Shown here in pieces: positions 17,722-44,922 of a stretch of 54,277 bases of DNA. The notes under the pieces are model-generated. The model worked only from the letters and a program-made list of their open reading frames with translations, was not told the origin of the DNA and searched no databases. The stretch's first letter is position 1; every line of letters begins with the position of its first letter. Position numbers and translations under genes: made by a program. Source of the stretch: an uncultured Gammaproteobacteria bacterium (GTDB lineage: Bacteria > Pseudomonadota > Gammaproteobacteria > JADZEE01); the NCBI GenBank assembly GCA_964404305.1, contig CAYOJP010000001.1, forward strand, positions 28,663-82,939, in the 5' to 3' direction.

Positions 17722-18480
17722 GTGAGCATTCGCATTGGCGGAGTACCGTACGGCGTCGGCGCGCCCCTTCTCGCGGGCCTGGAATCCGACCCTGCCGTAA
17801 CGCTGCGCCGCGCGCCGCCGACGGAACTGATCACGGCCCTGCGCAGCGGGGCGCTCGATGCCGCCCTCGTGTCATCGGTCGAAGCCGTGCGCATGCCGGG
17901 CTACCGTGTCGCGCGCGACCTCGGCATCGCCTGCAAGCACGAGATCCGGTCGGTGCGCGCGTTCCGCCGCCGCGGCGTGCCGATCCGGCGCGTCGGGCTC
18001 GACCAGTCGAGCGCGACCTCGGTGGCGCTGCTCCGGCTGCTGCTCGTCAACGTGCACGCCCCCGACCTGGCGCCTGACCTCGTGTTCGAGACGATCGAGC
18101 CGACGCGGCGCCCGGCCGATCTCCCGCACGACGTCGTGCTGCTGATCGGCGACCACGGGCTGCACGCCGCCGCCGACGACCGCGACGTCTGGGACCTCGG
18201 CGCCGCGTGGCGGCGATGGACCGGACTGCCGTTCGTGTTCGCGCTGTGGGTGCTGCACCCGGACGCGGACGCCGCGCGCGTGCTGCCAGTCCTGCAGGCC
18301 GCCCGCGCCCGCGGCCGCACGCTCGGCGCGGTCGACGGCACGCACGGGGCCGCCCACTACGACCTCGACGACGAAGACCGGCGCGGCCTCGCACGTTTCT
18401 TTGCCGAGTGCCGCGCGCACGGGCTGGCCACGGCCGGCGATCCCCGCACCGTTTCCCCCTCGATCCCCGCATCTCGATGA
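17722..18480 (+). CDS. mqnA: Menaquinone (futalosine pathway) biosynthesis protein, MqnA/MqnD family (chorismate dehydratase-like)
   Basis: The 252 aa ORF has a GTG start. Family motifs are IRIGGVPYGVGAPLLAGL, LLIGDHGL and DLGAAWRRWTGLPFVFALW. Its stop codon overlaps the top6B ATG (ATGA). Confidence 0.75.
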   Translation: MSIRIGGVPYGVGAPLLAGLESDPAVTLRRAPPTELITALRSGALDAALVSSVEAVRMPGYRVARDLGIACKHEIRSVRAFRRRGVPIRRVGLDQSSATSVALLRLLLVNVHAPDLAPDLVFETIEPTRRPADLPHDVVLLIGDHGLHAAADDRDVWDLGAAWRRWTGLPFVFALWVLHPDADAARVLPVLQAARARGRTLGAVDGTHGAAHYDLDDEDRRGLARFFAECRAHGLATAGDPRTVSPSIPASR

Positions 18481-20156
18481 GCAACCAGTCGGGCCAGCAA
18501 GACCTGTTCGCAGCGACCAACGACACCACCACGATGGCAGCGAAGGAACCCAAGGAGAAGGCGCCGAAAGGCGACGGCAGCGGCCGCACCGCCGAGTCGA
18601 TGGCCACGCGCCAGCGCGAGATCTCGGTCAGCGAGTTCTTCACCAAGAACCGCCACCTGCTGGGCTTCGACAGTCCGCGCAAGGCGCTGCTGACCGCGGT
18701 GAAGGAAGCCGTCGACAACAGTCTCGACGCGTGCGAGGAAGCGCGCATCCTGCCGGAGATCCGCGTCGCCATCACGCGCATCGGCACGAGCGAGAAGCAG
18801 TTCACGATGACCGTCGAGGACAACGGGCCGGGCATCGTGAAGGCGCAGGTGCCGCACGTGTTCGGCCGCCTGCTCTACGGCAGCAAGTTCCACCGGCTGC
18901 GCCAGAGCCGCGGCCAGCAGGGCATCGGCATCTCCGCCGCCGGCATGTACGGGCAGATGACCACCGGCGCGCCGACGATCATCCGCTCGCGCATCTCGGC
19001 CAAGCACCCGGCGCTCGACGTCGCGCTGCGCATCGACACCGCCAGGAACCAGCCCGTGCGGCCGCGGCCGGCGCGCGAGTTCGAGTGGGACCGCGAGCAC
19101 GGCACCGAGGTCCTCATCGAACTCGAGGCCGAGTACCGCCGCGGCAGGGGCAGCGTCGACGAGTACCTCGGGCAGGTCGCCATCGCCAACCCGCACGTGA
19201 CGATCCGCTACCGTCCGCCCGACCTCGAGGCGCTCGCGCCGCCGGTGGTCTTCGAGCGCGCCACGAAGCAGGTGCCCGTCCAGCCGCGCGAGATCAAGCC
19301 GCACCCGCACGGCGTCGAGCTCGGCTTCCTGATGAAGATGATGAAGTCGACCGACAGCACCAAGCTGTCGGCCTTCCTCGCGGCCGACTTCTCGCGCGTC
19401 AGCAGCCGCGTCGCGAAGGAGATCTGCGAGCGGGCCGGTCTCGACCCCGCCGCGCGCGTCAAGAGCCTCGAGCACAAGTCGGCCGAGGCGCTCTACAAGG
19501 CGATCGCCGACACGAAGCTGATGAACCCGCCCACCGACTGCGTCTCGCCCATCGGCGAGGAGCTGATCGCCAAGGGCCTGGCCAAGGAGATCGGCGAGGC
19601 GCAGTTCTTCGTCTCGCGCACGCGCGCGCCGGCCGTCTACCGCGGCAATCCCTTCCAGGTCGAGGTCGGGTGCGCGCTCGGCGGCAGCCTGCCGGCCGAC
19701 GAGCCGGTGCGCCTGATGCGCTTCGCCAACCGCGTGCCGCTGCAGCACCAGGCCGGCGCCTGCGCGATCAGCAAGGCCGTGCTCGACGTCGACTGGCGCG
19801 GCTACGGCCTCTCGCAGCCCAAGGGCAGCCTGCCGATCGGCCCGGTGATCTTCATGGTGCACCTCGCCAGCGTCTGGGTGCCCTTCACCTCCGAGAGCAA
19901 GGAGGCCGTGGCGAGCTATCCCGAGATCCTCAAGGAACTCAAGCTCGCGCTGCAGGAATGCGGCCGGCAGATGCAGATCCACCTGCGCCGCCGCGCGCGC
20001 GTCGAGGACGAACTCAAGAAGCGCAGCTACATCGACAAGTACATCCCGCACATCGGCGAGGCGCTGCAGGAGATCCTGGGCCTGAAGGAGACCGAGAAGG
20101 AGGCCGTCGTCTCCAAGCTGCGCGAGACGCTCGAGAAGAGCCGCAAGCTGGGCTGA
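18477..20156 (+). CDS. top6B: DNA topoisomerase VI subunit B (GHKL ATPase + H2TH + transducer)
   Basis: The ATG at 18477 gives a 559 aa protein. Bergerat-fold motifs are present: EAVDNSLDA (N box), EDNGPGI (G1) and GQQGIGISAAGMY (G2). Further matches are PHPHGVELG, the transducer region FANRVPL and a C-terminal helical tail. The track ORF from 18207 is an N-terminal over-extension across mqnA. Confidence 0.92.
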   Translation: MSNQSGQQDLFAATNDTTTMAAKEPKEKAPKGDGSGRTAESMATRQREISVSEFFTKNRHLLGFDSPRKALLTAVKEAVDNSLDACEEARILPEIRVAITRIGTSEKQFTMTVEDNGPGIVKAQVPHVFGRLLYGSKFHRLRQSRGQQGIGISAAGMYGQMTTGAPTIIRSRISAKHPALDVALRIDTARNQPVRPRPAREFEWDREHGTEVLIELEAEYRRGRGSVDEYLGQVAIANPHVTIRYRPPDLEALAPPVVFERATKQVPVQPREIKPHPHGVELGFLMKMMKSTDSTKLSAFLAADFSRVSSRVAKEICERAGLDPAARVKSLEHKSAEALYKAIADTKLMNPPTDCVSPIGEELIAKGLAKEIGEAQFFVSRTRAPAVYRGNPFQVEVGCALGGSLPADEPVRLMRFANRVPLQHQAGACAISKAVLDVDWRGYGLSQPKGSLPIGPVIFMVHLASVWVPFTSESKEAVASYPEILKELKLALQECGRQMQIHLRRRARVEDELKKRSYIDKYIPHIGEALQEILGLKETEKEAVVSKLRETLEKSRKLG

Positions 20157-20200
20157 GGGAGGCCGCCGCGACGCGCACCACGACGACGCTCCCCGAAGCG

Positions 20201-20812
20201 TTGTTCATTTCGGCGCTGTGTTTCGGCTGGGCGGTCGCCTCGTCGCTGCAGGCCGGCGGGGCCGACGCGAGGCTGGCCGAGTTTCGCGACGGCGACTTTC
20301 TCAGGATGGCGGGGCTCGAACTCGCCCTGGCGGGCCTCGCGCTGCTCGTGCTGCGTCTGCGCCGCTTCGACGTGGCCGGCCTGCTGCCGCGCCCGAGCTG
20401 GCGCGGCGCCGCGCAGGGCCTGCTGCTCGGCGCCTGCGGCTGGGCCGCCGGCTGGGCCGTCATGCAGCCCTTCGCCGCCGGCACGGCCGGCGAGGAGGCG
20501 GCGCTCCTGACGGCAGGCCTGTCCCTCTCGCCGCTCACGATCGCGGCCGTCAGCCTCGTCAACGGCACCTACGAGGAGGTCTTTCTGCTGGGCTTCCTCG
20601 CGCGCGGTCTGCGCCAGCGCGGGACACTGCCCGCGCTCGGCGCCCCGCTGCTGGTGCGCGCGCTGTTCCACGGCTACCAAGGGCCGCTGGCCCTGGCTGC
20701 GGTGCTGGTCTTCGGGCTCGTGCTCGGCCTGTGGTATCTGCGCACGGCGGCGCTGTTCCCGGCCGTGCTCGCGCACGTGCTGGCCGACGTCGTCGGCCTG
20801 GCGTGGACCTGA
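20201..20812 (+). CDS. CPBP-family intramembrane glutamic endopeptidase (CAAX protease / bacteriocin-processing family)
   Basis: This is the C-terminal part of track ORF 18401..20812. CPBP motifs are present: NGTYEEVFLLGFLARGL (EExxxR), RALFHGY (FxxxH) and LAHVLADVV (HxxxD/N), with several TM helices. The start is uncertain: TTG at 20201 is in frame, and the ATG at 20306 would delete the first helix. Confidence 0.7.
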   Translation: MFISALCFGWAVASSLQAGGADARLAEFRDGDFLRMAGLELALAGLALLVLRLRRFDVAGLLPRPSWRGAAQGLLLGACGWAAGWAVMQPFAAGTAGEEAALLTAGLSLSPLTIAAVSLVNGTYEEVFLLGFLARGLRQRGTLPALGAPLLVRALFHGYQGPLALAAVLVFGLVLGLWYLRTAALFPAVLAHVLADVVGLAWT

Positions 20813-20818
20813 CCGGGC

Positions 20819-20837: not shown

Positions 20838-21449
20838 CTACTTCCGCCGGTAGCGCGTCTCGACCATCTTGAAGGGCGGGTCGTAGACCGTCGGGCCCTG
20901 GTTGACGAACACCACCGACGAGAGGAACTCGTCGTCGTTCAGCCACTCGATCTCGAACCAGTAGTTCTGGTCGCCGAGCGGCTCGACGTCGCGGCCGTGC
21001 AGGCGGATCACGCCGTCGGCCTCGCGCGTGCCGGCGCCGGTGACGTAGTAGGTGCCGAGCGAGTCGAAGCCCACGACGGTGTACACGTCGTTGCGCCGGT
21101 CGAAGCCGAACATCGAGATGCCCTCGAAGGGCTGACCGAAGAAGTCGCCGTGACTGGTCATGTGCACGAAGCGGCCGTCGAGGACGACGCGGCTGCTGGC
21201 CGTCGCCGCCTGCTTCATCGGCTCGGCGCCGGGCGCCATCCAGATCGAGACCTCGCCCTCCCACTCGCCGGCGAACTTCGCCAGTTCGGCGTGCTCGGGG
21301 CCCGGCTGCGCGAGACGCATCATCTCGGCCATCTGCTCGGGCGTGAGCTGCGCGGGCGCGGGCGCGGGGTCGGCGGCCGGCGGCGCGGCGCAGGCGCACA
21401 GCGCGGCGAGCAGCAGGGCGGGCAGGAACGACGGGCGCGATCGCGGCAT
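20838..21449 (-). CDS. DUF1579-family lipoprotein
   Basis: The ATG at 21449 gives MPRSRPSFLPALLLAALCAC (lipobox). The remainder (GEWEGEVSIWMAPG...GRFVHMTSHGDFFGQPFEGISMFGFD...YWFEIEW) resembles the DUF1579 lipocalin-like family. It lies 53 bp downstream of the kinase gene on the same strand. Confidence 0.6.
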   Translation of the reverse strand: MPRSRPSFLPALLLAALCACAAPPAADPAPAPAQLTPEQMAEMMRLAQPGPEHAELAKFAGEWEGEVSIWMAPGAEPMKQAATASSRVVLDGRFVHMTSHGDFFGQPFEGISMFGFDRRNDVYTVVGFDSLGTYYVTGAGTREADGVIRLHGRDVEPLGDQNYWFEIEWLNDDEFLSSVVFVNQGPTVYDPPFKMVETRYRRK

Positions 21450-21502
21450 GGTCAGGCCTCCGGAAGGGCGAGGGCGAGCATACGCGAACGAGGCGCCCGT
21501 CG

Positions 21503-24454
21503 TCAGGGCCGCGGCGCGAGGCGGGCCTCGAGCGCGTCCAGCAGCGCCGAGAACTCGCCTTCGGCGCGCAGTTCGGCCAGATCCGCGGCGGACTCCAGCA
21601 CGCCGACGTCGTCCCAGCCGGCCTCGATCGCCAAACGCAGCGCGGCCAGTCCCTGCGCGCGCCAGACGGCGGACTCGGCCTGACCGGCGCCCGCCGCCTG
21701 CGCGTACAGCCCCGCCGCGACCCGCAGCGGCCGGGCCTGGCCCGGCAGCAGCTCGACGATCTCCCGGGCGGCGGCGGCGCAGCCGGCGGCATCGTCGAGT
21801 TGCAGGCAGGTCAGTCCGAGGAACCAGGCCGCGTTGAAGGCCGCGCCCTGCCCCGCGGGCTCGTCGGGGTTGCCGGCCAGCGCGAGGCGCGCGCACTCGA
21901 GCGCCTCCTGAAAGCGCCGTCGCGCGCCGGGAAGCTCGCCCGCGCTCCGCTCGACGGCGCCGAGGTTCACCAGGCTGCCGCCCAGCATGCCCTGCAGGCT
22001 CGGCACGTCGGGCGTGTCGCGGATCAGCAGCCGCAGCTCGTCGATCGAGCGCTCCAGCGCGGCCAGCGCCTCGGCCCGACGCTCGGGCTCCTTCAGCAGC
22101 AGCGTGCCGAGATTGTTCCAGCCGGAGGACAGCATCCGGCGCAGCACGACGTGGCGCGGAGCGTGCGCGAGCGCCTGCTCGAGGATCGCGATCGCCTGCC
22201 GGATCCGCGGCTCGACCTCCGCCGGCGCTTCGGTGCCGACCACGATCATGCGCACGCCGGCCGCGCCGAGGGCCCGCTCGGCATCCGCAGCGAGCGCCTC
22301 GAGATGCGGGGCGGACAGCTCCACGGCGCGCCGCACGGCGTCGAGCGCCTCGTCGGGGCGCCCCGCGAGCTTGAGCTGGCCGGCCTGGTTGTTCAGCGCC
22401 GCCACCAGGCTCGCGACGCCGGCCAGTCGTCGGGCCTCATCCGTCGCGCGCGCCAGCAGCGTCTCGTTGCAGGACACGTTCTCGGCGTGCGCGGCCAGCG
22501 CCTCCTCGTCGCGGCCGGCGGCGTGCTCGAGGACCGCGCGCTGGGCGAGCGACTCGACGAGCCGGCGCAGCGCGTCCCAGTCCTGCGGCGCGTCCTCCAC
22601 GCGTCGTCGCCGCACGCGCAGGCCCTCGTCGATCGCCGCCGCGGCCGGCTCGAGCTGCCCGAGTTCGAGCAGCGCGTAGCCGCGCCCCGCCTCGGCGTCG
22701 CCGAGCGACTCGAGCGCGGCGGCGTCCCGCGGGTCGAGCGCCAGCAACTCGCGCGCCAGCGCGGCCTGTCGTGCGAACGCCTCGCCGGCCTCGGGATTGC
22801 GGCCCAGCTGCACGAGCAGGAACGCGCAGCGCGCCGAGGCGCGCGCGACGAGCCGCTTCAGGGCCGGATCGTCGGTGCGCTCGGACAGGAACTCCTCGTA
22901 GAAGGCCAGCGCGCTCTCGAGCAGCCGGCGGCGCACGGGCTGCAGATCGGGCACGTGCAGCAGGTCCTCCTCGGCCACCTGGGTGAGCAGCACGTCCACG
23001 GCGGCCTGGGCGCGCGCGAAATTGGCCTCGGCGCGCGCGCGCTGGATCTCGGTCTCGTCGTACGCGCGGCCGATCTCCCGCGCCGCGCGCCGCTGCTGGA
23101 AGGCGTAGGCGCCCGGACCGCCGACGACGAGCAGCAGGCCGGCGGCGAGGCCCACGCTGGCCGCGGGATGGCGCTGCGTCCAGCGGCGCAGCCGCAGCAG
23201 CGGGCCCGGGCGCCGCGCGTGCACCGGGCGCCGGGCGAGCGCGTTGTCGAGGTCCTCGGCGAAGGCGCGCGCGCTCGCGTAGCGGCGCTCGCGGTCGCGG
23301 TCCATGGCCTTCAGGCAGACGGTCTCGGCGTCGCGCGGCACCGCGGCGTTGAGCTCGCGCGGCGCGATGACGCGCCCGTCGAGGATGCGCCGGCGCGTGG
23401 CCTCGACGTCGCCCCCGGCGAAGGGCGAGCGCAGCGTGAGCAGCTCGTACAGCGTGGCGCCGAGCGCGTAGACGTCGCTGCGGGCGTCGAGACCGGCATG
23501 CTCGCCGCGCACCTGCTCGGGCGACATCCACGCCAGCGACCCGAGCTGCGCGCCGGTGCCCGTGAGCCGCGCGCTGCCCGCCGCGCTCGCCAGGCCGAAG
23601 TCGAGCAGCAGCACGCGACCCTCCGCCGTCAGCATGATGTTGCTGGGCTTGACGTCGCGATGCAGCACGCCCCGTTCGTGCGCGTGCTGCAGCGCGTCGG
23701 CCACGGCGCGCGCCACGCGCAGGCAGACCGTCGGCCACGCGCCGGCGAACAGCGTCGCGGCCGCGCGCGAACCGCTGCCGCCCTCCGTCCCGCTCTCCCG
23801 GCCCGCGGCGCGCTCGACGGCCGCGAGCAGGTCGGCCCCGCCCAGCCGCGCCGGGTCGCGCCCGGCGAAGGCGCGCAGCAGGTCCTCGAGGGAGGCGCCG
23901 CGCACGCGCTCCATCGCGTAGTACGGGATGCCGTGCTCCTCGCCGCCCGCGTGCACCGGCACGATGCCCGGATGCGCAAGCCGTGCCACCGCCTCCACCT
24001 CGCGGGCGAAGCGTTCGCGCGCGCCCGGGAAGTGCAGCAGGTCGGGACGCACGAGCTTGAGCGCGACCTCGCGCTGCAGGCCGACCTGCTCGGCGAGGAA
24101 GACCACGCCCATGCCGCCCCCGCCGAGGCGCGAGAGGATCCGGAAGCCGCCGATGCGTTCGGGCAGCGGCGCCGCGCCCGTCGTCGCCCCCGCGAAACCG
24201 ATCGCGCGCAACTGCTCGATGCGCGAACGCAGCGCGGAGGCGCGGTCCGGGTGCGCGCGGCAGACCTCTTCGAGCGCCGCCGGCCCCTCGCGATCGAGGC
24301 GCTCGAGGGCCGCGGCCACGAGGTCGGAGAGCGACGCCGAGTCGTCCGACTCCGGCCGCGGCGCCGCCTCGTGCTCGGCCGAATCCAAGGGATGATCCGT
24401 GGGGTGACCCGTGGGCGCGGACCGCGATCCGGCGCCGCGCGCGCACTCTAGCAC
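21503..24454 (-). CDS. Ser/Thr protein kinase with one TM helix and a long TPR-like C-terminal region
   Basis: The 983 aa ORF has a GTG start. Hanks motifs are present: LGGGGMGVVFLAEQ, ALKLV, LHRDVKPSNIML, DFGLA and SPEQ. A TM helix (SVGLAAGLLLVVGGPGAYAF) is followed by a repetitive Ala/Leu-rich helical repeat region. Confidence 0.9.
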   Translation of the reverse strand: MLECARGAGSRSAPTGHPTDHPLDSAEHEAAPRPESDDSASLSDLVAAALERLDREGPAALEEVCRAHPDRASALRSRIEQLRAIGFAGATTGAAPLPERIGGFRILSRLGGGGMGVVFLAEQVGLQREVALKLVRPDLLHFPGARERFAREVEAVARLAHPGIVPVHAGGEEHGIPYYAMERVRGASLEDLLRAFAGRDPARLGGADLLAAVERAAGRESGTEGGSGSRAAATLFAGAWPTVCLRVARAVADALQHAHERGVLHRDVKPSNIMLTAEGRVLLLDFGLASAAGSARLTGTGAQLGSLAWMSPEQVRGEHAGLDARSDVYALGATLYELLTLRSPFAGGDVEATRRRILDGRVIAPRELNAAVPRDAETVCLKAMDRDRERRYASARAFAEDLDNALARRPVHARRPGPLLRLRRWTQRHPAASVGLAAGLLLVVGGPGAYAFQQRRAAREIGRAYDETEIQRARAEANFARAQAAVDVLLTQVAEEDLLHVPDLQPVRRRLLESALAFYEEFLSERTDDPALKRLVARASARCAFLLVQLGRNPEAGEAFARQAALARELLALDPRDAAALESLGDAEAGRGYALLELGQLEPAAAAIDEGLRVRRRRVEDAPQDWDALRRLVESLAQRAVLEHAAGRDEEALAAHAENVSCNETLLARATDEARRLAGVASLVAALNNQAGQLKLAGRPDEALDAVRRAVELSAPHLEALAADAERALGAAGVRMIVVGTEAPAEVEPRIRQAIAILEQALAHAPRHVVLRRMLSSGWNNLGTLLLKEPERRAEALAALERSIDELRLLIRDTPDVPSLQGMLGGSLVNLGAVERSAGELPGARRRFQEALECARLALAGNPDEPAGQGAAFNAAWFLGLTCLQLDDAAGCAAAAREIVELLPGQARPLRVAAGLYAQAAGAGQAESAVWRAQGLAALRLAIEAGWDDVGVLESAADLAELRAEGEFSALLDALEARLAPRP

Positions 24455-24475
24455 GCCGTCCGCCGCGTTCCGGGC

Positions 24476-25090
24476 TCAGCCCGGTTCGGCGCGGCCCTGC
24501 CGCTCGAGCGCCTTGGCCAGCCGCGCCAGCGCGCGGAACAACTGCTGTCGCGCGGCGGCTTCGCTGCAGCCCAGCTGCGCGCCGATCTCGCCGCCGGAGA
24601 GTCCCGCGATGCGCGACATGACCACGATCTCGCGGTCGTGCTCGTCCAGCGTCTCGAAGGCGCGCTCGATGCGCTCCATCGTCTCGCGGCCCGCGGCAAG
24701 CGCGCTCGGCGAGCAGAAGGAGCGGTAGACGTCGAGGACCTGCGTGTCGCCCTCCGCGCCGCGCGCGTGCAGCGGCACCTCGCGCCCGGCGTCGCGGCGC
24801 TGCGCCTGCCAGAAGTCGGCCCGGTCGGCCAGCTTGCGCGCGGTCGTGGCGTAGAGCCAGGCGCGGAAACCGGCCTCGCCGTTCCAGCGGAAGCGGTCGA
24901 CGTGCGCCAGGACCTCGCGGCAGGCCGACTGCACGATGTCGCTGGCCGACTCGCGCGCGCGCAGCGCGGGACCGCAGCGCAGCCGCACCCAGGCGCGCAG
25001 CGCCGGCAGGTTCTCCGCGAGCAGCTCCTCGACCGCCCGGCCGTCGCCCCGCGTGGCGCGCTCGACGAGCTCCTGGCTGGGCGGGGGCAT
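24476..25090 (-). CDS. ECF-type RNA polymerase sigma-70 factor (kinase-associated)
   Basis: The ATG at 25090 gives a 204 aa protein. The sigma-2 region reads DIVQSACREVLAHVDRF...FRAWLYATTARKLAD. The sigma-4 HTH reads REIVVMSRIAGLSGGEIGAQLGCSEAAARQQLFRALARL. It is 21 bp upstream of the kinase gene. The rest of track ORF 24476..26716 is antisense to eutB. Confidence 0.85.
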   Translation of the reverse strand: MPPPSQELVERATRGDGRAVEELLAENLPALRAWVRLRCGPALRARESASDIVQSACREVLAHVDRFRWNGEAGFRAWLYATTARKLADRADFWQAQRRDAGREVPLHARGAEGDTQVLDVYRSFCSPSALAAGRETMERIERAFETLDEHDREIVVMSRIAGLSGGEIGAQLGCSEAAARQQLFRALARLAKALERQGRAEPG

Positions 25091-27528: not shown

Positions 27529-28181
27529 TGCTCGAGCCCATCGCGCCGAAGATCCTCTCGGTGCGCCGCATCCCGGGCGCGAGCCCCGCGCTGCTGGCCG
27601 CCTACGGCGCCGACCCGGCGCGCCACGCGTCGCTCGGCCTGATCACGGCCGACCAGGACGACCCGACCTGCGTCGCGCTCGACGAGGCCACCAAGCACGC
27701 GCCCGTCGACGTCGTGTACGCGAGGAGCTTCTGGGCCGGCGCGCGCCACGCCTCGGGCCCGCTCTCGGGCGAGATCCTCGGCGTGCTGGCCGCCGCCGGC
27801 CCCGACGAGATCGACGAGGGCCTCGAGGCCGCGCTGCGCTGCCTGCAGCACGACGCCTGCTTCTACGCGGCCGACGAGGCCGGCCGCACGGCGGTCTTCC
27901 CGCACGTGGTCAGCGCGCTCGGTCAGTACCTCTCGCGGCAGGCCGGCCTCGCGCCCGGCGACCCGATGGCCTATCTCGTCGCGCCGCCGATGGAGGGCAC
28001 GCTCGGCCTCGACGCCGCGCTCAAGGCCGCGCGCGTGCGCCCGGCCGCCATCGCGCCGCCGCCGAGCGCGACCAACTTCATGTCGGCCTTCCTCTCCGGG
28101 CCGCTCGAGGAGTGCGAGGCCGCCGCGCAGGCCTTCGCGCAGGCCGTCGTCGACGTCGCGCGGCGGCCGCACGCGCGCTAG
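27528..28181 (+). CDS. eutL: EutL-like bacterial microcompartment shell protein (tandem BMC domain, BMC-T)
   Basis: The 217 aa ORF starts 1 nt inside the eutC stop. Its length and motifs match my recollection of E. coli EutL: SLGLITADQDD, LDEATKHAPVDVVYARS, FPHVVSALGQYLS, GDPMAYLVAPPMEGTLGLDAALKAA and PPPSATNFMSAFLSG. Confidence 0.8.
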   Translation: MLEPIAPKILSVRRIPGASPALLAAYGADPARHASLGLITADQDDPTCVALDEATKHAPVDVVYARSFWAGARHASGPLSGEILGVLAAAGPDEIDEGLEAALRCLQHDACFYAADEAGRTAVFPHVVSALGQYLSRQAGLAPGDPMAYLVAPPMEGTLGLDAALKAARVRPAAIAPPPSATNFMSAFLSGPLEECEAAAQAFAQAVVDVARRPHAR

Positions 28182-32826: not shown

Positions 32827-32827
32827 G

Positions 32828-36513: not shown

Positions 36514-36517
36514 GCCC

Positions 36518-39500
36518 GTGGCCGAGTTCTTCCTCAACCGGCCGGTGCTGGCCGTCGTCCTGTCGATCCTGACGGTGATCGTCGGGGCCATCGCCGCGCT
36601 CTCGCTGCCCGTCGAGCAGTACCCCGCCCTGGCGCCGCCGACGATCCGCGTCGAGGCGAGCTATCCGGGCGCCGCGGCCGAGGTCGTCGAGCAGTCCCTC
36701 GCCACGCCGATCGAGCAGCAGCTCAACGGCGTGGAGGACATGCTCTACATGAAGTCGCTCAACACGAGTGACGGGCGCATGCTGCTCGACGTGAGCTTCG
36801 AGGTCGGCAAGGACCTCGACATCGCGAACGTGCTCGCGCAGAACCGCGTGAGCCAGGCCAGCGCCCGACTGCCCTCCGAGGCGCTGCAGCAGGGCGTCAC
36901 GGTCAAGAAGCTCAACCCGAGCATCCTGCTCGTGGCCTCGATCTACTCGCCGAACGGCACCTGGTCGGACCGCTTTCTGGCCAACTACGCCACGATCAAC
37001 GTGCGCGACGCGCTGCTGCGCGTGCCCGGCGTGGCGCAGGTCGACCTGTTCGGTACCTCCGAGTACGGCATGCGCGTGTGGCTGCGGCCCGACCGCCTGG
37101 CCCAGCTCGGCCTCACGCCCGCCGACGTGGTCGCGGCGATCCGCGAGCAGAACATCCAGGCGCCCGCGGGGCAGGTCGGCGCGGCGCCCTCGCCGCCCGG
37201 CCAGGAGTTCACCTACACCGTGCGGGCGCCGGGCAAGTTCGTGACGCCGGAGGAGTTCTCCGCGATCATCGTGCGCCAGACGGAGGACGGCGCGGTCGTG
37301 CGCCTGGGCGACGTGGGCCGCGTCGAACTGGGCAGCGAGCACTACAAGTCCTTCTCGCGCATGAACGGCAGGCCCGCCGGCGTGCTCGCCGTGTACCTGC
37401 TGCCGGGCGCCAACCAGCTGCAGGCGGCGCAGGGCCTGTACGCGGCCTTCGAGCAGCTCGCGGAGTTCTTCCCCGACGACGTGGCCCATCGGATCGTCTA
37501 CGACACGACGCCCGCCGTGCAGGCCTCGGTCGAGGAGATCCTCGTCACGCTGCTCGAGGCGATCGTGCTCGTGATCCTCGTCACCTGGATCTTCCTGCAG
37601 AGCGCGCGCGCCACGCTCATCCCGCTGGTGGCGATCCCGGTCTCGCTCATCGGCACCTTCATCTTCTTCCCGCTGCTGGGCTTCTCGGTCAACACGCTCT
37701 CGATGTTCGGGCTGGTGCTGGCCATCGGCACGGTCGTGGACGACGCGATCGTCGTCACCGAGGCGGCGATGCAGTACATCGCGCAGGGCCTGTCACCGCG
37801 CGAAGCCACGAGCCGCGCCATGAAGGAGGTCTCGGGCGCGCTCGTGGGCACCTCGCTGATCATGGTGGCGGTGTTCGTGCCGGTGGCCTTCCTCGGCGGG
37901 CTGGTGGGCAGCATGTACCAGCAGTTCGCGCTCACGATCGCGATCTCGGTGCTGCTCTCGACCTTCAACGCGCTGACGCTCTCGCCGGTGCTGGCGAGCC
38001 GGCTGCTGCGCCCGCACGCGCCGGGCGGGCGCGGGCCGCTGGCGGCGCTGTTCTCCGGCTTCAACCGCCTGCTCGAGCGCACGACCTCCGGCTACGTGGC
38101 GGGCACGCGCTTCTTCGTGCGCCGCGCGCTGCTCAGCCTGCTGGCCGTCGGCGCCGCCGGCGCCGGCGCGGGCCTGCTCGGCGGCGTCGTGCCGCGCGGC
38201 TTCGTGCCGAACGAGGACCAGGGCATCTTCCTGGTCAACGTGCAGCTGCCCAACGCGGCGTCGCTCGAGCGCACCGACGCGGTCGTGCGGCAAGTCGAGG
38301 CGATCCTCGACCGCACGCCGGGCGTCACGTCCTACAGCGCGATCGGCGGCCTGGGGATGCTGACCAATTCCTTCGCCTCCAACTACGCCAGCTTCTTCTG
38401 CCGGCTGGCCCCGTGGGAGGAGCGGGCCGCGCCCGAACTGCAGCTCGACGCCATCCTCGCCGGCCTGCAGCGCGAGCTGTCGGCGATCCCCGAGGCGATC
38501 GCCTTTCCCTTCGCGCCCCCCACGATCTCGGGCTTCGGCGCGGCCGGCGGCTTCAACTTCCTGCTGCAGGATCGCAGCGGCACGCTGAGCGTCGACGAAC
38601 TCGGCGCCGAGACGCGCACCTTCCTCGCGGCCGCGCGGCAGCGTCCCGAGCTGGCCAACCTGTTCACGTCCTTCGACCCGACCGTGCCGCAGGTCGAGGT
38701 CCGGCTCGACCGCGAGAAGGCGCGCACGCTCGGCGTGCCGATCAACGACGTGTTCACGACGCTGCAGACCGCGCTGGGCGGCGCCTACGTCAACGACTTC
38801 AACCGCTTCGGGCGCCTGTACCGCGTGTTCGTGCAGGCCGAACCCGAGTTCCGGCAGCAGCCCGCCGACATCGCGGACTTCTTCGTGCGCAGCCGCACGA
38901 CCGGCGAGATGATCCCGCTCTCGACGATGGTCGACGTGCGCGGCACGACCGGCACCGAGCTGACGACGCGCTTCAACCTGTTCCGCTCGGTCGAGGTCTC
39001 GGGCGTGCCGGCGCCGGGCTTCTCGTCGGGGCAGGCCATGGCCGCGCTGCAGGACGTGGCGCGGGAGGTGCTGCGGCCCGAGCTGGGCCACGCGTACGCC
39101 GGCTTCTCGTACCAGGAGCGGACGGCGCCGCCGGCCGGCCCCACCTTCGCGATGGCGATCGTGTTCGTGTTCCTGCTGCTGGCCGCGCTGTACGAGAGCT
39201 GGAGCCTGCCGTGGAGCGTGCTGCTGGGCACGCCGCTGGCGGCGCTGGGCGCCTTCTTCGGCGTGTGGTTGGGCGGCCACGACAACGACGTCTTCGTGCA
39301 GATCGGCCTCGTCATGCTCATCGGGCTGGCGGCCAAGAACTCGATCCTGATCGTGGAGTTCGCCAAGCTGCGGCGCGAGCAGGGTTTGTCCTCGGCGGAC
39401 GCGGCCATCGACTCGGCGCGCTCGCGCTTCCGGCCGATCCTGATGACGGCGCTGTCCTTCGTGCTCGGCGTGGTGCCGCTGCTCACGGCCTCGGGCTCGG

Positions 39501-39661
39501 GCGCCGCCTCGCGGCAGGTCATGGGAGCGGCCGTGTTCTGGGGCATGCTGATCGCCGCCGCCGCCGGCCTGTTCTTGTGGCCGGCGCTGTTCGCCTTCGT
39601 CGACGGGCTCACCTCGCGCCGGCGCGCACCGCTCGCGCCGACGCCCGCGGAGGGCGCCTGA
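36518..39661 (+). CDS. RND multidrug efflux permease (HAE1 / AcrB family)
   Basis: The 1047 aa ORF begins [23 protein letters not shown] and has 12-TM architecture. Conserved stretches are [10 protein letters not shown] and [14 protein letters not shown]. Confidence 0.95.
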
Positions 39662-39662
39662 G

Positions 39663-41081
39663 ATGGCCGTCCGGCCGCCCGCGCGCCCCCTCGCCCTGCT
39701 GCTGCTCGCCGGCTGCGTCGTCGGCCCCGAGTACGCGCGCCCCGAGCTGCCGGTGCCGGAGGCCTGGCGTGACGGCTCGGCCGAGGCCGCGACGCTCGCC
39801 GACACCGCCTGGTGGGAGCTGCTCGGCGACCCGGCGCTGCGGGAGCTGATCGACGAGGCGCTGCGCAACAACCTCGACGCGCGCACGGCCCTCGAGCGCG
39901 TCGTCGAGGCGCGCGCGCTCGTGGCCTTCACGCGTGCCGATCAGGGCCCCTTCGCGGATCTGTTCGCCGGCGCCGACAAGGGCGCCGCCAGCCGCGACGG
40001 CCGCCCGCCCGTGCCGACGGGCAGCAACGGCACCGAGCTGTACGGCGCCGGCCTCGACCTCTCCTGGGAACTCGACCTGTTCGGACGCCTGCAGCGCGCG
40101 ACCCAGGCCGAGGAGTTGCGCCTGCTCGCGAGCGAGGAGCTGCGCCGCGACGTGCAGATCACGCTCATCAGCGAGGTCGCGCGCGCGTGGTTCGACCTGC
40201 GGCAGCTGCAGCTCTCGCTCGACATCTCGCGCCGGACCGTGCTGGCCAACCTGCGCACCGAAGAACTCACCCGCGTGCGTTTCGAGGGCGGCGTGGCCTC
40301 CGAACTCGACTGGCGGCAGGCGCAGAGCGAACGCTACCGCACCGAGGCGGTCGTCGCGAACCTGCAGCGCCTGCACGCGCGCACCGAGAACGAGCTGTCG
40401 GTGCTGCTCGGCCGCCCGCCGCACGTGGTGCGGCGCGGCCTCGGCCTGGCCGACCAGCCTGTGCCGCCGGCGGTGCCGGCGGGCCTGCCCTCGGCGCTGC
40501 TCGAGCGCCGCCCCGACCTGCGCGCCGCCGAGCTGCGGCTTGCGGCGGCCACCGCGCGCATCGGCGAAGCCCAGGCGATCCTGTTCCCGCGCGTGGCCCT
40601 CACCGGGTCGGGCGGCTGGGCCAGCACCGAACTCTCCGACCTCACCGACTCGGACGCCGACTTCTGGGGCCTGGCCCTCGACCTGACCTGGCCGCTGTTC
40701 AACGGCGGCAAACTGCAGGCCGGCGTCGAGGTCGCGCAGGCGCAGCAGCGCCAGGCGGCGCTGGCCTACGAGCAGGCGGTCCTGCGCGCGCTGCAGGAGG
40801 TCGAGGACGCGCTGGCCGACCTGCGCTCCTTCGGCGAGCAGCGCGTGCTGCAGGACGCGCGCGCCGAGGCCGAGCGCGAGCTGCTGCGGCTCTCGGTGCT
40901 GCGCTACGAGGGCGGCGTGGCCAGCTACCTCGAGGTGCTCGTCGCGCAGCGCAGTCAACTGACCGCCGAACTCGAGCGCGCGCAGGCCTGGCGCGACCAG
41001 CTCGTGGCGCTGGTGCGCCTGTACAAGGCGCTCGGCGGCGGCTGGGACCTGCAAGAACCGGGCGCCGCGCACCGCCGTTGA
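39663..41081 (+). CDS. Outer membrane factor lipoprotein of the RND system (NodT/OprM family)
   Basis: The 472 aa ORF has a lipobox (LLLAGCVVGPEY) and two OEP repeats. It starts 1 nt after the RND stop. Confidence 0.9.
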   Translation: MAVRPPARPLALLLLAGCVVGPEYARPELPVPEAWRDGSAEAATLADTAWWELLGDPALRELIDEALRNNLDARTALERVVEARALVAFTRADQGPFADLFAGADKGAASRDGRPPVPTGSNGTELYGAGLDLSWELDLFGRLQRATQAEELRLLASEELRRDVQITLISEVARAWFDLRQLQLSLDISRRTVLANLRTEELTRVRFEGGVASELDWRQAQSERYRTEAVVANLQRLHARTENELSVLLGRPPHVVRRGLGLADQPVPPAVPAGLPSALLERRPDLRAAELRLAAATARIGEAQAILFPRVALTGSGGWASTELSDLTDSDADFWGLALDLTWPLFNGGKLQAGVEVAQAQQRQAALAYEQAVLRALQEVEDALADLRSFGEQRVLQDARAEAERELLRLSVLRYEGGVASYLEVLVAQRSQLTAELERAQAWRDQLVALVRLYKALGGGWDLQEPGAAHRR

Positions 41082-41141: not shown

Positions 41142-41507
41142 TCAGGGCGTGGTGCCCTGCACGGCGTTGCTCAAGGCGACCCCTGCCGGTCCGCCGGCAT
41201 CCTGGATGCCGATCTGGATGTACAGCTCCGTGCCCGACGGAACGCCCGCCGGCCACGCGAACGGCAAGTGGATCGTGCCGCTCGGCGACGTCGCCATGTT
41301 CAGCGCGAGCGCCACCGGCGTCGGGACGAGCGTGCCGCCCTTGAACGGCAAGGGATTCCCGACGAGCGAGGCGAACAGCACCGCCGCCGCCGAGGGCTTG
41401 CCGTTGCTGAGGTCCAGCGCGCAGGCGCTGTGCGGCTGCAGCGTGCCGCTGCCCACGAGCGCCGGAGCGCCGCCCGTGCCGGCCAGGGCATGGCCCAGGT
41501 CGCACCA
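41142..41507 (-). other. Shared C-terminal module, subtype II (last ~121 aa)
   Basis: The module reads WCDLGHALAGTGGAPALVGSGTLQPHSACALDLSNGKPSAAAVLFASLVGNPLPFKGGTLVPTPVALALNMATSPSGTIHLPFAWPAGVPSGTELYIQIGIQDAGGPAGVALSNAVQGTTP. It is collinear with the module at 34817-35182. Confidence 0.6.
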
Positions 41508-43442
41508 CGTGCCGTTCCAGTACTCGCTCGCCTTGGCGAGGGCCTCGGTGCCGATCTTCTGGCCGTTGATGCGGCCATTGATGTCGTCCTGCGGCGGGTG
41601 GATGCCGCCCCAGATGCGCGAGAGCGAGCACTGGTCGGAGGCGTCGTAGTACGTCGCCCACTGCATCTTGACCGTCACGCTCGGGCCTTCCTCGAACACC
41701 AGGTACTCGTTCTGGGGGCACTCGAACTCGCCCAGGCCGCCCGGGAACCACTTGGTGCCCGTGAAGTTGTGCATCACCACCGCGCCGGCGCGGCTGTAGG
41801 TGCTGTGACCCGACAGATACCCGGCGAAGGGCGGCGACACGAAGGTCGGCCGCTGGTAGGGCCACCAGTCGGTCGCGAGGATCCATCCCACGCCCGCGGT
41901 GTCGACGAGCGGGTCGGCGATGGCCGTCGGCCCGCGCCAGGCGCGCGCCGCGATCTTGCCTTCCTTGCCGGCCAGGTGCTCCATCGGACCGCCCGGAGCC
42001 GTGTCGGCCGCCGTGATCGTCTGGACGTAACCCGGGACGAGCGGCAGGCCGTGCGGATGGTAGTTGGCCGCTTCGGTGTCCGTGCTCTGCCCGAGCCCCG
42101 CCATGTAGCGGATGGCGCTGACGGGCCGCACGTAGTCGTAGTAGCCCTTGACGCCCCAGGTCGAGACGGCGCTGTCGTGCATCGCGCCGCCCAGAGCGAG
42201 GTAGCCCTTGACGTCCCACTCGAGGTCGTCGACCACGGGCCCGACGCCGCCGATCTTCTTGACCAGGCGCGGATCGTCCGCGACGTGGTTGAAGATCGAG
42301 AACCAGTGTCCGGGCGGGGTCTCGGAGGCCGGACCGTCGGCCCAGAACTCGGCCAGGCAGCGGGTGTAGTCGCCGCGCGGCACCATCTGCACCTCGTACG
42401 GCTCGTCCGTGACCGGGTTGCGCTCGTAGCCGATGCTCGAGTCGCCGCCCTGCAGGAAGTCGTAGAAGTCGTCGTAGTCCTCGAAATCGGTCGGCAGCGG
42501 AGGGTTGTTGCCGATCGAGTTGGGCGACGCGTCGATCATCACGCCGTCGTTCGGATCGAGGTGCGAGGACCACAGCAGCGTCATCTCGAACATCGACTTG
42601 TAGAGATGCTCGTCGGCCTCGCCCAGCATCGGCGGCGGACCCGGATCGTGGTAGACCCACCAGTCGTAGCCGTCCTTGTTGTAGATGTCCAGGTCATCCA
42701 CCGTGAGCGAGAAGGGCTTGACGCGGCCCCACTCCGGCGAAAGGAAGGGCGGGAACCCGCCCGGGATCGGGTTGCCCGCCTGGTCGATGAAGAAGGACAG
42801 CGCGAGCGGCTGCCACAGGTTCGGGAAGTAGAGGTTGGGGTTGCCGTTGTCGAGCAGCACGACGATGAGCGCGTCGTTCTTGGGGAAGTAGAACTGGTTG
42901 GCGTACCCGTTGGCCTCGTTGGAACCGTCCGAGAGGCCGTAGGCGATCACGGTCGCGGCGATGCGGTTGCCGATCGCGGCGGCGCTGTCGCCGACGGTCG
43001 TCGTGATGCCGATGTCGTAGCCGTGATCGGCCATGTAGGCGTCGTACTGCGGGAACAGCGTCGGCATGGCCGGCGAGGACGCGAAGCGGTGCTTCAGGAT
43101 GCGCAGCATCGCGTAGGAGATCGTCTCGTGCCGCTTGGCGTCGAGCTCGAGTTCGTCGACGACGTGCTTCTCGGTGAACAGCACGCCGCGCGCGTTCTCG
43201 TCGTACGTGGCCCAGGCGTCCCACATCGCGGCGGACGTGTGGTAGAGGTTGCGCGCGTGCACGGTCGGCCGCGCGAAGTCCTTGCGGATCGTGGCGAGCA
43301 GCAGCTCGTTCCATTCGCGCGCGACGGATTCCTCCGCTTGCGCGCGCGGCGCGGCCGCGCCGAGCAGCACGACGGCCAGCGCCGTCGCCGTCCAAGGCAG
43401 GCTGCGCACCCTGCCGAGGAGGAAGTTGGAGATCGAGTTCAT
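41142..43442 (-). CDS. Secreted PAP2-superfamily enzyme, vanadium-dependent haloperoxidase-like, with shared C-terminal module
   Basis: The ATG at 43442 is preceded by GAGGA and gives the signal peptide MNSISNFLLGRVRSLPWTATALAVVLLGAAAPRAQA. The N-terminal region EWNELLLATIRKDFARPTVHARNLYHTSAAMWDAWATYD is typical of this family. PAP2 motifs are YDYVRPVSAIRY, YLSGHSTYS and SLSRIWGGIHPPQDD. Confidence 0.7.
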   Translation of the reverse strand: MNSISNFLLGRVRSLPWTATALAVVLLGAAAPRAQAEESVAREWNELLLATIRKDFARPTVHARNLYHTSAAMWDAWATYDENARGVLFTEKHVVDELELDAKRHETISYAMLRILKHRFASSPAMPTLFPQYDAYMADHGYDIGITTTVGDSAAAIGNRIAATVIAYGLSDGSNEANGYANQFYFPKNDALIVVLLDNGNPNLYFPNLWQPLALSFFIDQAGNPIPGGFPPFLSPEWGRVKPFSLTVDDLDIYNKDGYDWWVYHDPGPPPMLGEADEHLYKSMFEMTLLWSSHLDPNDGVMIDASPNSIGNNPPLPTDFEDYDDFYDFLQGGDSSIGYERNPVTDEPYEVQMVPRGDYTRCLAEFWADGPASETPPGHWFSIFNHVADDPRLVKKIGGVGPVVDDLEWDVKGYLALGGAMHDSAVSTWGVKGYYDYVRPVSAIRYMAGLGQSTDTEAANYHPHGLPLVPGYVQTITAADTAPGGPMEHLAGKEGKIAARAWRGPTAIADPLVDTAGVGWILATDWWPYQRPTFVSPPFAGYLSGHSTYSRAGAVVMHNFTGTKWFPGGLGEFECPQNEYLVFEEGPSVTVKMQWATYYDASDQCSLSRIWGGIHPPQDDINGRINGQKIGTEALAKASEYWNGTWCDLGHALAGTGGAPALVGSGTLQPHSACALDLSNGKPSAAAVLFASLVGNPLPFKGGTLVPTPVALALNMATSPSGTIHLPFAWPAGVPSGTELYIQIGIQDAGGPAGVALSNAVQGTTP

Positions 43443-43767
43443 CGGGTGTTCCTCAGGTGTGGAGATGCGACTGCTGCACGCGCCCTGCGTGCACACTTCG
43501 TCGTGCGAAGCGACGGAGTCTAGCACCGCTTCACGCAACGCGGGGAATTCTCGGCACGATCCACGCGCCGACTGTCGGTGCGCGGCGCGACGGCGGCGCG
43601 CAATCCATAAGACCTATGCCCATAAGGAATCCGACTGTGTCGTTCTCCGCGGGGAAACACAGTCGCCCGGGCCGTCGAGGCCGGGCTTGAAGCACGGCTG
43701 GCGGAGCCTATCGTCGAGTGGTCGCGGCCTTCCGGCCGTCGCCCGAGACTCCACGCGAGAGCCGCCG

Positions 43768-44922
43768 ATGGCCAAGTCGAGAACGCCCAGCCCCAAGCCC
43801 CTGCCGCGCAAGACCGTCACCGACGCGACCGACAAGGCGACCATCGCCTGCCTCGAGAGCGAGGCGCGCGCGGTCTACCAGGCCGGCGTGAAAAGCGGCC
43901 GGCCCGAGCTGGCCTCGCCGGTGCGCAGCCTGGGCAACGTGAAGTACGACAGCAAGGTCGGCTACCTCGAGATCGGCAAGCAGAAGAAGGTGCGCACGCT
44001 CACCGTGAACACGGTCAAGAGCTTCGCGCAGACCCTGCGCGTCATGTCGCTGTCCAAGGAGATGATCGAGGGCGACACCTTCGCGACCAAGCGCGAAGCC
44101 TACTACGTCTCCAAGAACTGGGGCGAGGCCAAGTTCAACGAGCAGCCCGAGTCGGATGCCGTGATGGACGACATCGAGGCGATGTTCGCGATGCAGGGCG
44201 TGAGCCGCGAGCAGCTGCGCTTCTACCCCGAGGAGCACGGCGGCGCCGTCGCCGGGCGCCTGACGGTCATCGACCGCGACCCGGCCTCCGGCCAGCCGCT
44301 GCGCATCGACTGCACCAAGTTCGGCACGGGCGCCTACTCCATCCCGCACAGCGTCGAGCACCTCGAGTTCGAGACGAAGGCGAAGTTCGTGCTCGCGATC
44401 GAGACCGGCGGCATGTTCCAGCGCCTGCAGGCCCACGGCTTCTGGGACAGCGCCAACTGCATCCTCGTGAGCATGAGCGGCGTCCCCACGCGCGCCACGC
44501 GGCGCTTCATCCGGCGCCTCGCCGAAGGGCAGAAGATCCCCGTCTACGCCTTCGTGGACTGCGACCCCTACGGCATCAGCAACATCTACCGCACGCTCAA
44601 GGTCGGCTCGGGCAACACCGCGCACCTCAACCGCTTCTTCTGCGTGCCGCACGCCAGCTACCTGGGCGTCACGCCGCAGGACATCCTCGATTACGAGCTG
44701 CCCACCCACCCGCTGCTCGACGTCGACGTCAAGCGCGCCAAGGACGCGCTCAAGAACGACCCGTTCTTCCACCACCACAAGCCCTGGCGCAAGGCGCTCG
44801 AGATGCTGGTCGAGATGGGCGTGCGCGCCGAGCAGCAGGCGCTCGCCAAGTGGGGCCTCAACTACGTCATCGACGAGTACCTGCCCGCCAAGCTCAAGGA
44901 CAGCAAGGCCTTCCTGCCGTAG
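43768..44922 (+). CDS. top6A: DNA topoisomerase VI subunit A (Spo11 family)
   Basis: The ATG at 43768 gives 384 aa. The catalytic-tyrosine region is TFATKREAYYVS, the Toprim Glu is FVLAIETGGMFQRL and the Toprim DxD is YAFVDCDPYGISI-like (AFVDCDPYGISN). The C-terminal stretch reads EQQALAKWGLNYV. The track ORF from 43249 is an over-extension. Confidence 0.92.
   Translation: MAKSRTPSPKPLPRKTVTDATDKATIACLESEARAVYQAGVKSGRPELASPVRSLGNVKYDSKVGYLEIGKQKKVRTLTVNTVKSFAQTLRVMSLSKEMIEGDTFATKREAYYVSKNWGEAKFNEQPESDAVMDDIEAMFAMQGVSREQLRFYPEEHGGAVAGRLTVIDRDPASGQPLRIDCTKFGTGAYSIPHSVEHLEFETKAKFVLAIETGGMFQRLQAHGFWDSANCILVSMSGVPTRATRRFIRRLAEGQKIPVYAFVDCDPYGISNIYRTLKVGSGNTAHLNRFFCVPHASYLGVTPQDILDYELPTHPLLDVDVKRAKDALKNDPFFHHHKPWRKALEMLVEMGVRAEQQALAKWGLNYVIDEYLPAKLKDSKAFLP

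Follow-up and report, generated by a model that had tools for sequence, protein, structure and literature searches.

Topoisomerase VI genes and the DNA between them

Intact genes for both subunits of a topoisomerase VI (Topo VI), top6B and top6A, lie on the + strand of the window (the whole 54,277-nt stretch of DNA analyzed here), and each retains every catalytic motif. The order is B then A, with exactly 23,611 nt from the stop of top6B to the start of top6A. Recalculated coordinates and motifs agree with the original prediction in all of these respects. The two genes do not form an adjacent, co-oriented and co-transcribable operon, because the interval contains about 17 genes, with five changes of strand among them. 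The features of the locus are as follows (coordinates, strand, description).

17722-18480, +, VitK2_biosynth gene (futalosine-pathway MqnA/MqnD-like; Pfam PF02621, 1.7e-32)
18477-20156, +, top6B (ATG start, 559 aa; GHKL ATPase, H2TH and transducer)
20157-43767, both strands, spacer of ordinary chromosomal genes (23.6 kb)
20201-20812, +, Rce1-like/CPBP intramembrane protease gene (Pfam PF02517, 2.7e-14; codon-position GC plot)
Between the CPBP gene and the first kinase/sigma module, -, DUF1579 gene (part of the spacer)
21503-24454, -, Ser/Thr kinase (spacer, first module)
24476-25090, -, ECF sigma factor (first module; frame set by codon-position GC analysis)
25286-26614, +, eutB (spacer)
26614-27528, +, eutC (spacer)
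27528-28181, +, BMC-domain gene (spacer)
28300-30003, +, trypsin-like peptidase (spacer)
30019-32826, -, kinase-FGE (spacer, middle sigma/kinase module, 30019-33502)
32828-33502, -, ECF sigma factor (spacer, middle module)
33662-35182, +, gene of unknown kind (spacer)
35356-41081, +, RND efflux MFP/pump/OMF (spacer)
41142-43538, -, DUF6851/VCPO-like gene (spacer)
43687-43714, +, promoter-like motif TTGAAG-N16-TATCGT (3' end 53 nt upstream of the top6A ATG)
43768-44922, +, top6A (ATG start, 384 aa; 5Y-CAP, Toprim and T2BI box)
44929-47394, -, Ser/Thr kinase (Pfam; convergent on top6A)
47465-48016, -, ECF sigma factor (Pfam; pairs with the kinase at 44929-47394)

The ATG of top6B overlaps the TGA stop of the VitK2_biosynth gene (ATGA, 18477-18480), which also precedes top6B in relatives L001, L083 and L088. 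Co-oriented with top6B, the CPBP gene starts 44 nt 3' of it and may be co-transcribed with it. A longer open reading frame, 18401-20812, was ruled out as top6B; codon-position GC shows that it reads through out of frame and ends in the CPBP gene.

Planctomycete-type families fill the window (PF07638 ECF sigma factors, DUF1579, sulfatases and kinase-FGE proteins). A diderm host, as had been proposed, is supported by the RND pump and its TolC-family outer-membrane factor encoded at 35356-41081. The spacer was also considered as a mobile element, and this was rejected. Neither the spacer nor the surroundings of the Topo VI genes contain a tRNA, an Rfam family, or flanking or bounding repeats, and no integrase or transposase is found among the Pfam hits. 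Another candidate was a translocation, in which the CPBP gene and kinase that follow top6B would correspond to the Rce1-like gene and kinase located 3' of top6A in SAW251. These genes share no significant similarity, so the idea was dismissed.

Family membership of the two proteins

The N box EAVDNSLDA (with N81), the G1 box DNGPGI and the G2 box GQQGIGISAA of Top6B align to M. mazei Top6B, and the protein has a Bergerat/GHKL fold (Pfam HATPase_c, 6.4e-10). Its transducer domain spans residues 351-514 (PF09239 Topo-VIb_trans, 2e-55), and the switch lysine, K475, lies in an FTSESK motif that aligns with the same motif of 2q2e_B. Scores against NCBIfam models are 671.4 bits for NF003218 'DNA topoisomerase VI subunit B' (cut-off 274) and 499.9 for TIGR01052 (cut-off 380.7). 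In a PDB search, residues 39-549 match M. mazei Top6B (2q2e_B, 4e-149). The C-terminus is short and helical and, unlike that of M. mazei Top6B, has no Ig-like domain; alignment between the two stops at about residue 509 of 621. This C-terminal domain is discussed elsewhere (PMC9348778).

In Top6A, the 5Y-CAP domain carries KREAYYVS, with R109 and Y113 aligned to R99 and Y103 of M. jannaschii Top6A, and the Toprim metal ligands are E212 (AIETGG) and D264/D266 (DCDPYG). Three Pfam domains are found, all above threshold: TOP6A-Spo11_Toprim (PF21180, 3.4e-58), Topo_VI_alpha (2e-18) and TP6A_N (PF04406, 7.8e-15). The protein stays below the cut-off of all six NCBIfam Top6A equivalog models, which are narrow sub-models (best NF003337, 467.6 versus 675). 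A PDB search matches it to M. jannaschii Top6A (1d3y_A, 5.9e-112). The N-terminal region is retained, with the alignment to M. mazei Top6A starting at residue 33, and the T2BI box, VRAEQQALA at residues 352-360, is of the Topo VI type (R/KxExxA/S). The family assignment of both subunits is far beyond chance.

The proteins share the two-subunit architecture of archaeal Topo VI (M. mazei 2Q2E, S. shibatae 2ZBK and M. jannaschii 1D3Y) and align to it over their full length. Both have the same kinds of GHKL boxes (N, G1 and G2), switch lysine, catalytic Arg and Tyr, Toprim E and DxD residues, and T2BI box. Topo VIII and Mini-A also share the Bergerat fold and the chemistry of 5Y-CAP and Toprim (PMC7671362). 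[quoted passage not shown] The T2BI box R/KxExxA/S sets Topo VI apart from the RVELNAM of Topo VIII and the WELDAL of Mini-A (PMC7671362). Assignment to Topo VIII or Mini-A was rejected here, given two full-length canonical subunits, the T2BI box VRAEQQA and the lack of mobile-element signatures.

Distribution and gene layout in Bacteria

Bacterial Topo VI is already known, both from the literature (PMC2647321, PMC4117785 and PMC8837201) and from annotation by the hundreds in metagenome-assembled genomes (MAGs). Species-representative genomes contain at least 556 confirmed loci. Searches with each protein returned at least 8000 proteins, the best matches being named topoisomerase VI in Planctomycetota, Acidobacteriota and Myxococcota, and close relatives already bear this name in NCBI and JGI records. 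The view that the enzyme is only sporadic in Bacteria is thus outdated. Among the matches listed, the closest homologues of Top6A and Top6B are from Planctomycetota MAGs, and identity to the nearest relatives is 77-83% for B and 88-91% for A. The MAG taxon labels are those of the record titles, and some contigs may be mis-binned. No bacterial Topo VI with biochemical, genetic or expression characterization was found in the literature searched.

Look-ups of contigs by the exact sequence of each of the two proteins gave no match, and genomic context was taken from homologues. Gene layout was surveyed at 80 bacterial species loci. At all 72 informative loci the two genes are co-oriented with B first, and the window shares this order and strand with bona fide Topo VI of Planctomycetota, Acidobacteriota and Myxococcota MAGs. 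The genes are adjacent (gap of 300 nt or less) at 56 of the 80 loci and split by 0.5-9.6 kb at 16, while three loci have no B within 10 kb. The ancestral bacterial layout is a top6B-top6A operon. Split genes occur in 18 of 38 Planctomycetota-labelled genomes versus 3 of 39 elsewhere (Fisher p about 1e-4). In the closest clade, defined by an A subunit at least 88% identical, all six relatives among the matches listed are split, each with different cargo. Their B-A gaps are listed here.

L001, 3.8 kb
L088, 6.33 kb
L084, 6.36 kb
L085, 9.78 kb
L083 with L004, 10.09 kb
L087, more than 10 kb

Across relatives, gap size is graded from 12 nt to 23.6 kb, and the gap in the window is the widest among the loci examined. 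The split had been presented as unusual, yet comparison of synteny reveals it to be ordinary for the clade and present in about half of Planctomycetota-labelled genomes. It does set this bacterial locus apart from most archaea, where the genes are contiguous. The earlier statement that archaeal genes are normally adjacent stands as a general rule, but not for N. equitans, Methanococcales, A. fulgidus and M. kandleri, whose genes are non-contiguous (PMC2643942). The discovery value of the locus is small, since bacterial Topo VI is documented and unlinked genes are both normal for the clade and known in archaea. What the survey pictures is operon decay: most phyla keep the two genes side by side, about half of Planctomycetota-labelled genomes have them split, and in one clade the gap widens progressively.

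Origin of the separation, expression and possible role

The locus very probably encodes a bona fide, functional bacterial Topo VI in a high-GC Planctomycetota-type genome, whose ancestral operon has been pulled apart and whose subunits are now separately transcribed. Insertion or rearrangement of unrelated genes would have parted top6B from top6A while keeping their order and strand, a decay that appears in Planctomycetota and, within the closest clade, in all members sampled. Both genes have dN/dS values below 1 (0.22-0.30 for A and 0.34-0.55 for B), which are rough because extreme GC3 bias depresses dS.

It is exceedingly improbable that the separation is an assembly artefact, with a chimeric metagenomic contig joining two genomes or loci. 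The window is metagenome-derived, all matching runs are metagenomes, and the Topo VI genes have a somewhat lower GC content (0.67-0.69) than the spacer (0.738), but their GC3 (0.89-0.93) matches that of host genes and the same B...A layout exists in relatives. Three independent metagenomes (bioreactor, drinking water and aquatic) supplied Logan contigs that tile the interval and are colinear over 17.6-49.9 kb. Those of run X1 are identical to the window; those of runs X2 and X3, from other environments, are about 1% divergent and colinear with it. Depth is uniform within each run, each contig break in one run is bridged by another, and the reported contig joints rest on chance matches of about 20 nt. 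A chimera, which the original prediction had named as a case that would overturn it, is largely refuted. Two separate transfers of B and A, which would make the split primary rather than the product of a decayed operon, are extremely unlikely. Pairwise distances of A and B are strongly correlated (r = 0.79, reached by 0 of 999 permutations), and both proteins rank the same nearest neighbors in the same order, so that their congruent histories point to one shared history rather than two. The invariant B-upstream, same-strand layout and the graded gap size argue likewise. The best PDB match of A is from Methanococcales and that of B from Methanosarcinales, as two transfers might leave them, but this difference arises because of which structures exist.

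Co-evolution of A and B, and the fact that all close relatives carry both genes on one contig, also bear on whether the subunits are functionally independent, A being a Spo11- or Mini-A-like nuclease with some other partner and B an orphan ATPase. Unlinked genes under probably different regulation would suit such a division, but no catalytic residue has been lost, the T2BI box is present, and A keeps the N-terminal region that is missing in Mini-A and Topo VIII (PMC7671362). Independence is highly improbable. Another account makes the separation functional, with each subunit wired to an adjacent ECF-sigma/Ser-Thr-kinase module that would co-regulate Topo VI under envelope or stress signals. 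The modules proposed at 21503-25090 and 44929-48016 are real, and the second is directly convergent on top6A (the stop codons of top6A and the kinase are 6 nt apart) and conserved in L085 and L086. In L085 it is orthologous and syntenic, with 85% identity in the kinase domain and 64% in the sigma factor. The first lies 1.3 kb downstream of top6B; there, the convergence claimed for both subunit genes does not hold, with the CPBP and DUF1579 genes in between. However, three modules (21503-25090, 30019-33502 and 44929-48016) occur within 27 kb of window sequence, so proximity is expected by chance. A kinase is beside top6B in none of five relatives, and the kinase/sigma pair is beside top6A in this one lineage and not in other relatives. 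Convergent orientation gives no shared promoter, and the motif upstream of top6A (see below) is sigma-70-like, not ECF-like. Such wiring is therefore very unlikely, and the proximity is probably due to chance.

The two genes are unlinked and must belong to separate transcription units. Promoter use and the means of balancing the subunits are inferred here, as is enzymatic activity. Transcription of top6A probably starts from its own clade-conserved, sigma-70-like promoter. The candidate, TTGAAG-N16-TATCGT, is the only match of a loose pattern on the + strand of the window and recurs upstream of top6A in L085 and L087; a variant, CTTG(T/C)AA-N17-CAGACT, precedes top6A in L001, L084, L088 and L004. 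The motif was defined by eye after the sequences had been seen and is anchored on the -35 element; a MAFFT alignment of the sequences upstream of top6A put the two subtypes out of register. A scan for consensus sigma-70 promoters found no match near either gene in this 73% GC DNA, and a terminator scan gave no useful match. In a search of RNA runs, those recovered held at most 10% of the sampled words and represent relatives, not this organism. The top6B gene abuts its upstream neighbor and is without the separate promoter-like motif of relatives. Since its ATG lies across the stop of the menaquinone-synthesis gene, joint expression of the two is probable.

Gyrase of E. coli is likewise an obligate heterotetramer made from unlinked, separately transcribed gyrA and gyrB, although its A subunit belongs to a different, non-homologous family. 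The split Topo VI genes had been thought to pose a special problem of stoichiometry; with gyrA and gyrB unlinked too, no such problem is raised.

The predicted enzyme would be an ATP-dependent type IIB topoisomerase of A2B2 composition that passes one duplex through a transient double-strand break, and its likeliest role would be decatenation and relaxation. A bolder reading, which we regard as unlikely, is that the top6B-top6A interval of this clade is a recurrent landing zone for new genes and that expression has been rewired (top6B into a menaquinone (futalosine) unit, with top6A keeping its own conserved promoter). If ParC and ParE were also absent from these genomes, a large bacterial lineage would depend chiefly on Topo VI to decatenate its chromosomes, a role that, to our knowledge, has never been demonstrated in Bacteria. 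Seven genomes carry seven different cargos between top6B and top6A, ranging from 3.8 to 23.6 kb.

Identity and occurrence of the topoisomerase VI genes

The window has a GC content of 73%, and its raw lists of open reading frames are full of spurious frames. Genes were therefore mapped by combining codon-position GC plots with Pfam scans. The two genes of topoisomerase VI (Topo VI) were placed as follows.

[quoted passage not shown]
18477-20156, + strand: top6B (subunit B), ATG at 18477, stop at 20156, 559 aa
43768-44922, + strand: top6A (subunit A), ATG at 43768, stop at 44922, 384 aa

The original prediction of a complete, intact Topo VI pair is correct, as judged by reading frames, domains, structure alignments and key residues, and the 23,611-nt separation is exact when re-measured in the correct frames. 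The top6B product matches the Topo VI-B transducer domain (Pfam, 2e-55) as well as GHKL domains, and the top6A product carries TP6A_N, an all-beta domain and the Top6A/Spo11 Toprim domain (3.4e-58). Among solved structures, Top6B aligns end to end with its M. mazei counterpart (4e-149) and Top6A aligns to that of M. jannaschii (5.9e-112). All chemistry-defining residues are present in Top6B (N81, G1 box DNGPGI, G2 box GQQGIG, switch Lys475) and in Top6A (Arg109/Tyr113, Glu212, Asp264/Asp266). The T2BI box of Top6A, which tells Topo VI apart from Topo VIII and Mini-A (PMC7671362), reads VRAEQQA and is of the Topo VI type.

Top6B scores 671 bits against NCBIfam equivalog NF003218, well above the cut-off of 274. 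Top6A reaches the curated cut-off in none of the six NCBIfam equivalog models; the best sub-model gives 467.6 bits, with a narrow cut-off of 675. Five of these six models are titled 'DNA topoisomerase IV subunit A', a misleading name that has passed to the NCBI records of relatives.

Family membership implies that the enzyme would be an A2B2 type IIB topoisomerase. Its B subunits would dimerize upon ATP binding, and its A subunits would cut DNA via Tyr113, with Mg2+ held by Toprim residues, before a second duplex goes through the break. Decatenation is the preferred activity of M. mazei Topo VI (PMC8837201) and, by analogy, may be preferred here.

Topo VI had been described as only sporadic in Bacteria, a view that is not borne out. 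Homology searches with Top6A and Top6B each return at least 8000 proteins (E ≤ 1e-20), and the top 120 matches of each search, where named, are bacterial 'DNA topoisomerase VI' subunits. When genomes were scanned with one representative per species, at least 556 top6A loci were confirmed. The best 80 of these come from Planctomycetota, Acidobacteriota, Myxococcota, Spirochaetales, Hydrogenedentota and others. Bacterial Topo VI has been on record since at least 2009 (PMC2647321, PMC4117785, PMC8837201). Topo VI itself is thus no oddity in bacteria, and the pair in the window joins a known bacterial family.

Split gene order and its history

Gene layout was surveyed over 10 kb on each side of top6A in the best 80 of the at least 556 loci. 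Wherever top6B is seen, it lies upstream of top6A on the same strand. The genes are adjacent (300 nt or less) in 56 loci and split by 0.5-9.6 kb in 16. Three more have the full 10 kb upstream of top6A without top6B; the other five lie at contig ends, where the sequence preceding top6A is too short. Split loci account for 18 of 38 Planctomycetota-labelled cases versus 3 of 39 others (Fisher p about 1e-4), although cases are not phylogenetically independent and the tally includes three contig-end loci, each with at least 1.3 kb upstream that lacks top6B. Within the clade nearest to the window (identity of at least 88% for A and at least 77% for B), all members are split, with different cargo in each.

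Distance between top6B and top6A in the closest clade
SAW251 (L001): 3.8 kb
GCA_975469075.1 (L088): 6.33 kb
Farmland contig (L084): 6.36 kb
JGI contig (L085): 9.78 kb
SMAG_U1375 (L083 with L004): 10.09 kb
Forest contig (L087): more than 10 kb

The 23.6-kb gap in the window is at the far end of this series. The split, put forward as unusual, is an ordinary arrangement typical of the clade. Non-contiguous Topo VI genes are also found in the archaea N. equitans, A. fulgidus, M. kandleri and Methanococcales (Berthon et al., PMC2643942). The order 5' of top6B is partly conserved among relatives (Fer4, VitK2_biosynth, sometimes a sulfatase, then top6B). On the 3' side of top6A, the kinase, ECF sigma factor and sulfatase have their orthologues in L085 (85%, 64% and 57% identity).

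Pairwise distances for A and B are correlated across the 69 loci carrying both genes (r = 0.79, reached by 0 of 999 permutations), and the window's nearest neighbours are identical for the two subunits. Together with the invariant order of B then A, these findings favour joint inheritance of the pair, probably followed by operon decay; separate acquisitions of A and B are unsupported on the same grounds. GC3 of both genes (0.89-0.93) is the same as that of the host, so any transfer from archaea would be old. Values of dN/dS are below 1 for both A (0.22-0.30) and B (0.34-0.55), though these are rough and inflated by GC3 constraint on dS.

In GCA_975469075.1, intact top6A is followed 1.7 kb downstream by a 30-aa fragment of the Top6A C-terminus (20981-21070, 80% identity), which hints at a past duplication or rearrangement.

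Neighbouring genes and expression

The spacer between the subunit genes (20157-43767) and its flanks contain the following.

Genes within and beside the spacer
17722-18480, +: VitK2_biosynth gene (futalosine-pathway menaquinone synthesis), TGA overlapping the top6B ATG (ATGA, 18477-18480)
20201-20812, +: Rce1-like/CPBP protease
about 20838-21450, -: DUF1579 protein
21503-24454, -: first Ser/Thr kinase
24476-25090, -: first ECF sigma
25286-28181, +: eutB, eutC and BMC-domain gene
28300-30003, +: trypsin-like peptidase
30019-32826, -: kinase-FGE fusion
32828-33502, -: second ECF sigma
33662-35182, +: secreted protein, unknown
35356-41081, +: RND efflux triplet including a TolC-family outer-membrane factor
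41142-43538, -: DUF6851/VCPO-like gene
44929-47394, -: third Ser/Thr kinase
47465-48016, -: third ECF sigma

Signs of a mobile element are lacking in the spacer, which carries no tRNA, Rfam match, bounding repeats, integrase or transposase. Its five strand switches exclude co-transcription of top6B and top6A, which would be expressed from separate units. A motif, TTGAAG-N16-TATCGT (43687-43714, + strand), stops 53 nt short of the top6A ATG and is the sole + strand match to a loose pattern in the 54-kb window. The same motif precedes top6A in L085 and L087, and a variant, CTTG(T/C)AA-N17-CAGACT, does so in the other four relatives. The motif carried by top6B in relatives is CTTGAAC-N17-TAnnnT; top6B of the window lacks a motif of this type. 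These motifs are putative promoters; a consensus promoter scan gave no match at either Topo VI gene. In relatives, VitK2_biosynth also precedes top6B, but another gene or a putative intergenic promoter lies between the two. The ATGA overlap and the lack of its own motif suggest that top6B in the window is co-transcribed and translationally coupled with the menaquinone-synthesis gene.

Three pairs of ECF sigma (PF07638 type) and Ser/Thr kinase genes occur within 27 kb (21503-25090, 30019-33502 and 44929-48016). Each subunit gene had been described as convergent to such a module; this holds directly for top6A only. No module adjoins top6B in relatives, and one adjoins top6A in the L085 lineage only. 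The association is treated here as lineage-specific synteny or chance. One of the three kinases has a C-terminal FGE-sulfatase domain, and the kinases have paralogous DNA stretches in common.

The eutB, eutC and BMC-domain shell genes form a small ethanolamine ammonia-lyase/microcompartment cluster in a Planctomycetota-type genome. The secreted protein gene at 33662-35182 holds a 543-nt internal tandem duplication (33751-34724, families D1 and D2, 71-78% identity). Its product and that of 41142-43538 have in common a C-terminal domain of ~120 aa with no Pfam match, which also occurs in many FG-GAP-type proteins adjoining the Topo VI genes of L001, L084, L085, L087 and L088. Identity over this domain is 40-48%, and its role may lie in sorting or secretion.

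Host and continuity of the contig

A Planctomycetota host would fit the gene families in the window (PF07638 ECF sigmas, DUF1579, sulfatases and a kinase-FGE fusion) and the closest Topo VI homologues, which are from Planctomycetota MAGs. A chimeric contig, raised as a possible refutation, is not borne out. The sequence recurs in three unrelated metagenomes, from a bioreactor (X1), drinking water (X2) and an aquatic sample (X3), whose independently built contigs are colinear over 17.6-49.9 kb. The X1 contigs match the window exactly; those of X2 and X3 diverge from it by ~1%. Depth is uniform inside each run, and each run's contig breaks are spanned by a contig from another run. The listed 'joints' are noise from other GC-rich contigs, with matches of just ~20 nt.

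Near-identical strains (window 17000-49900) are present in metagenomes from bioreactor, drinking-water and aquatic sources, and 5-10% of top6A 31-mers recur in many metagenomes and metatranscriptomes from soil and rhizosphere.
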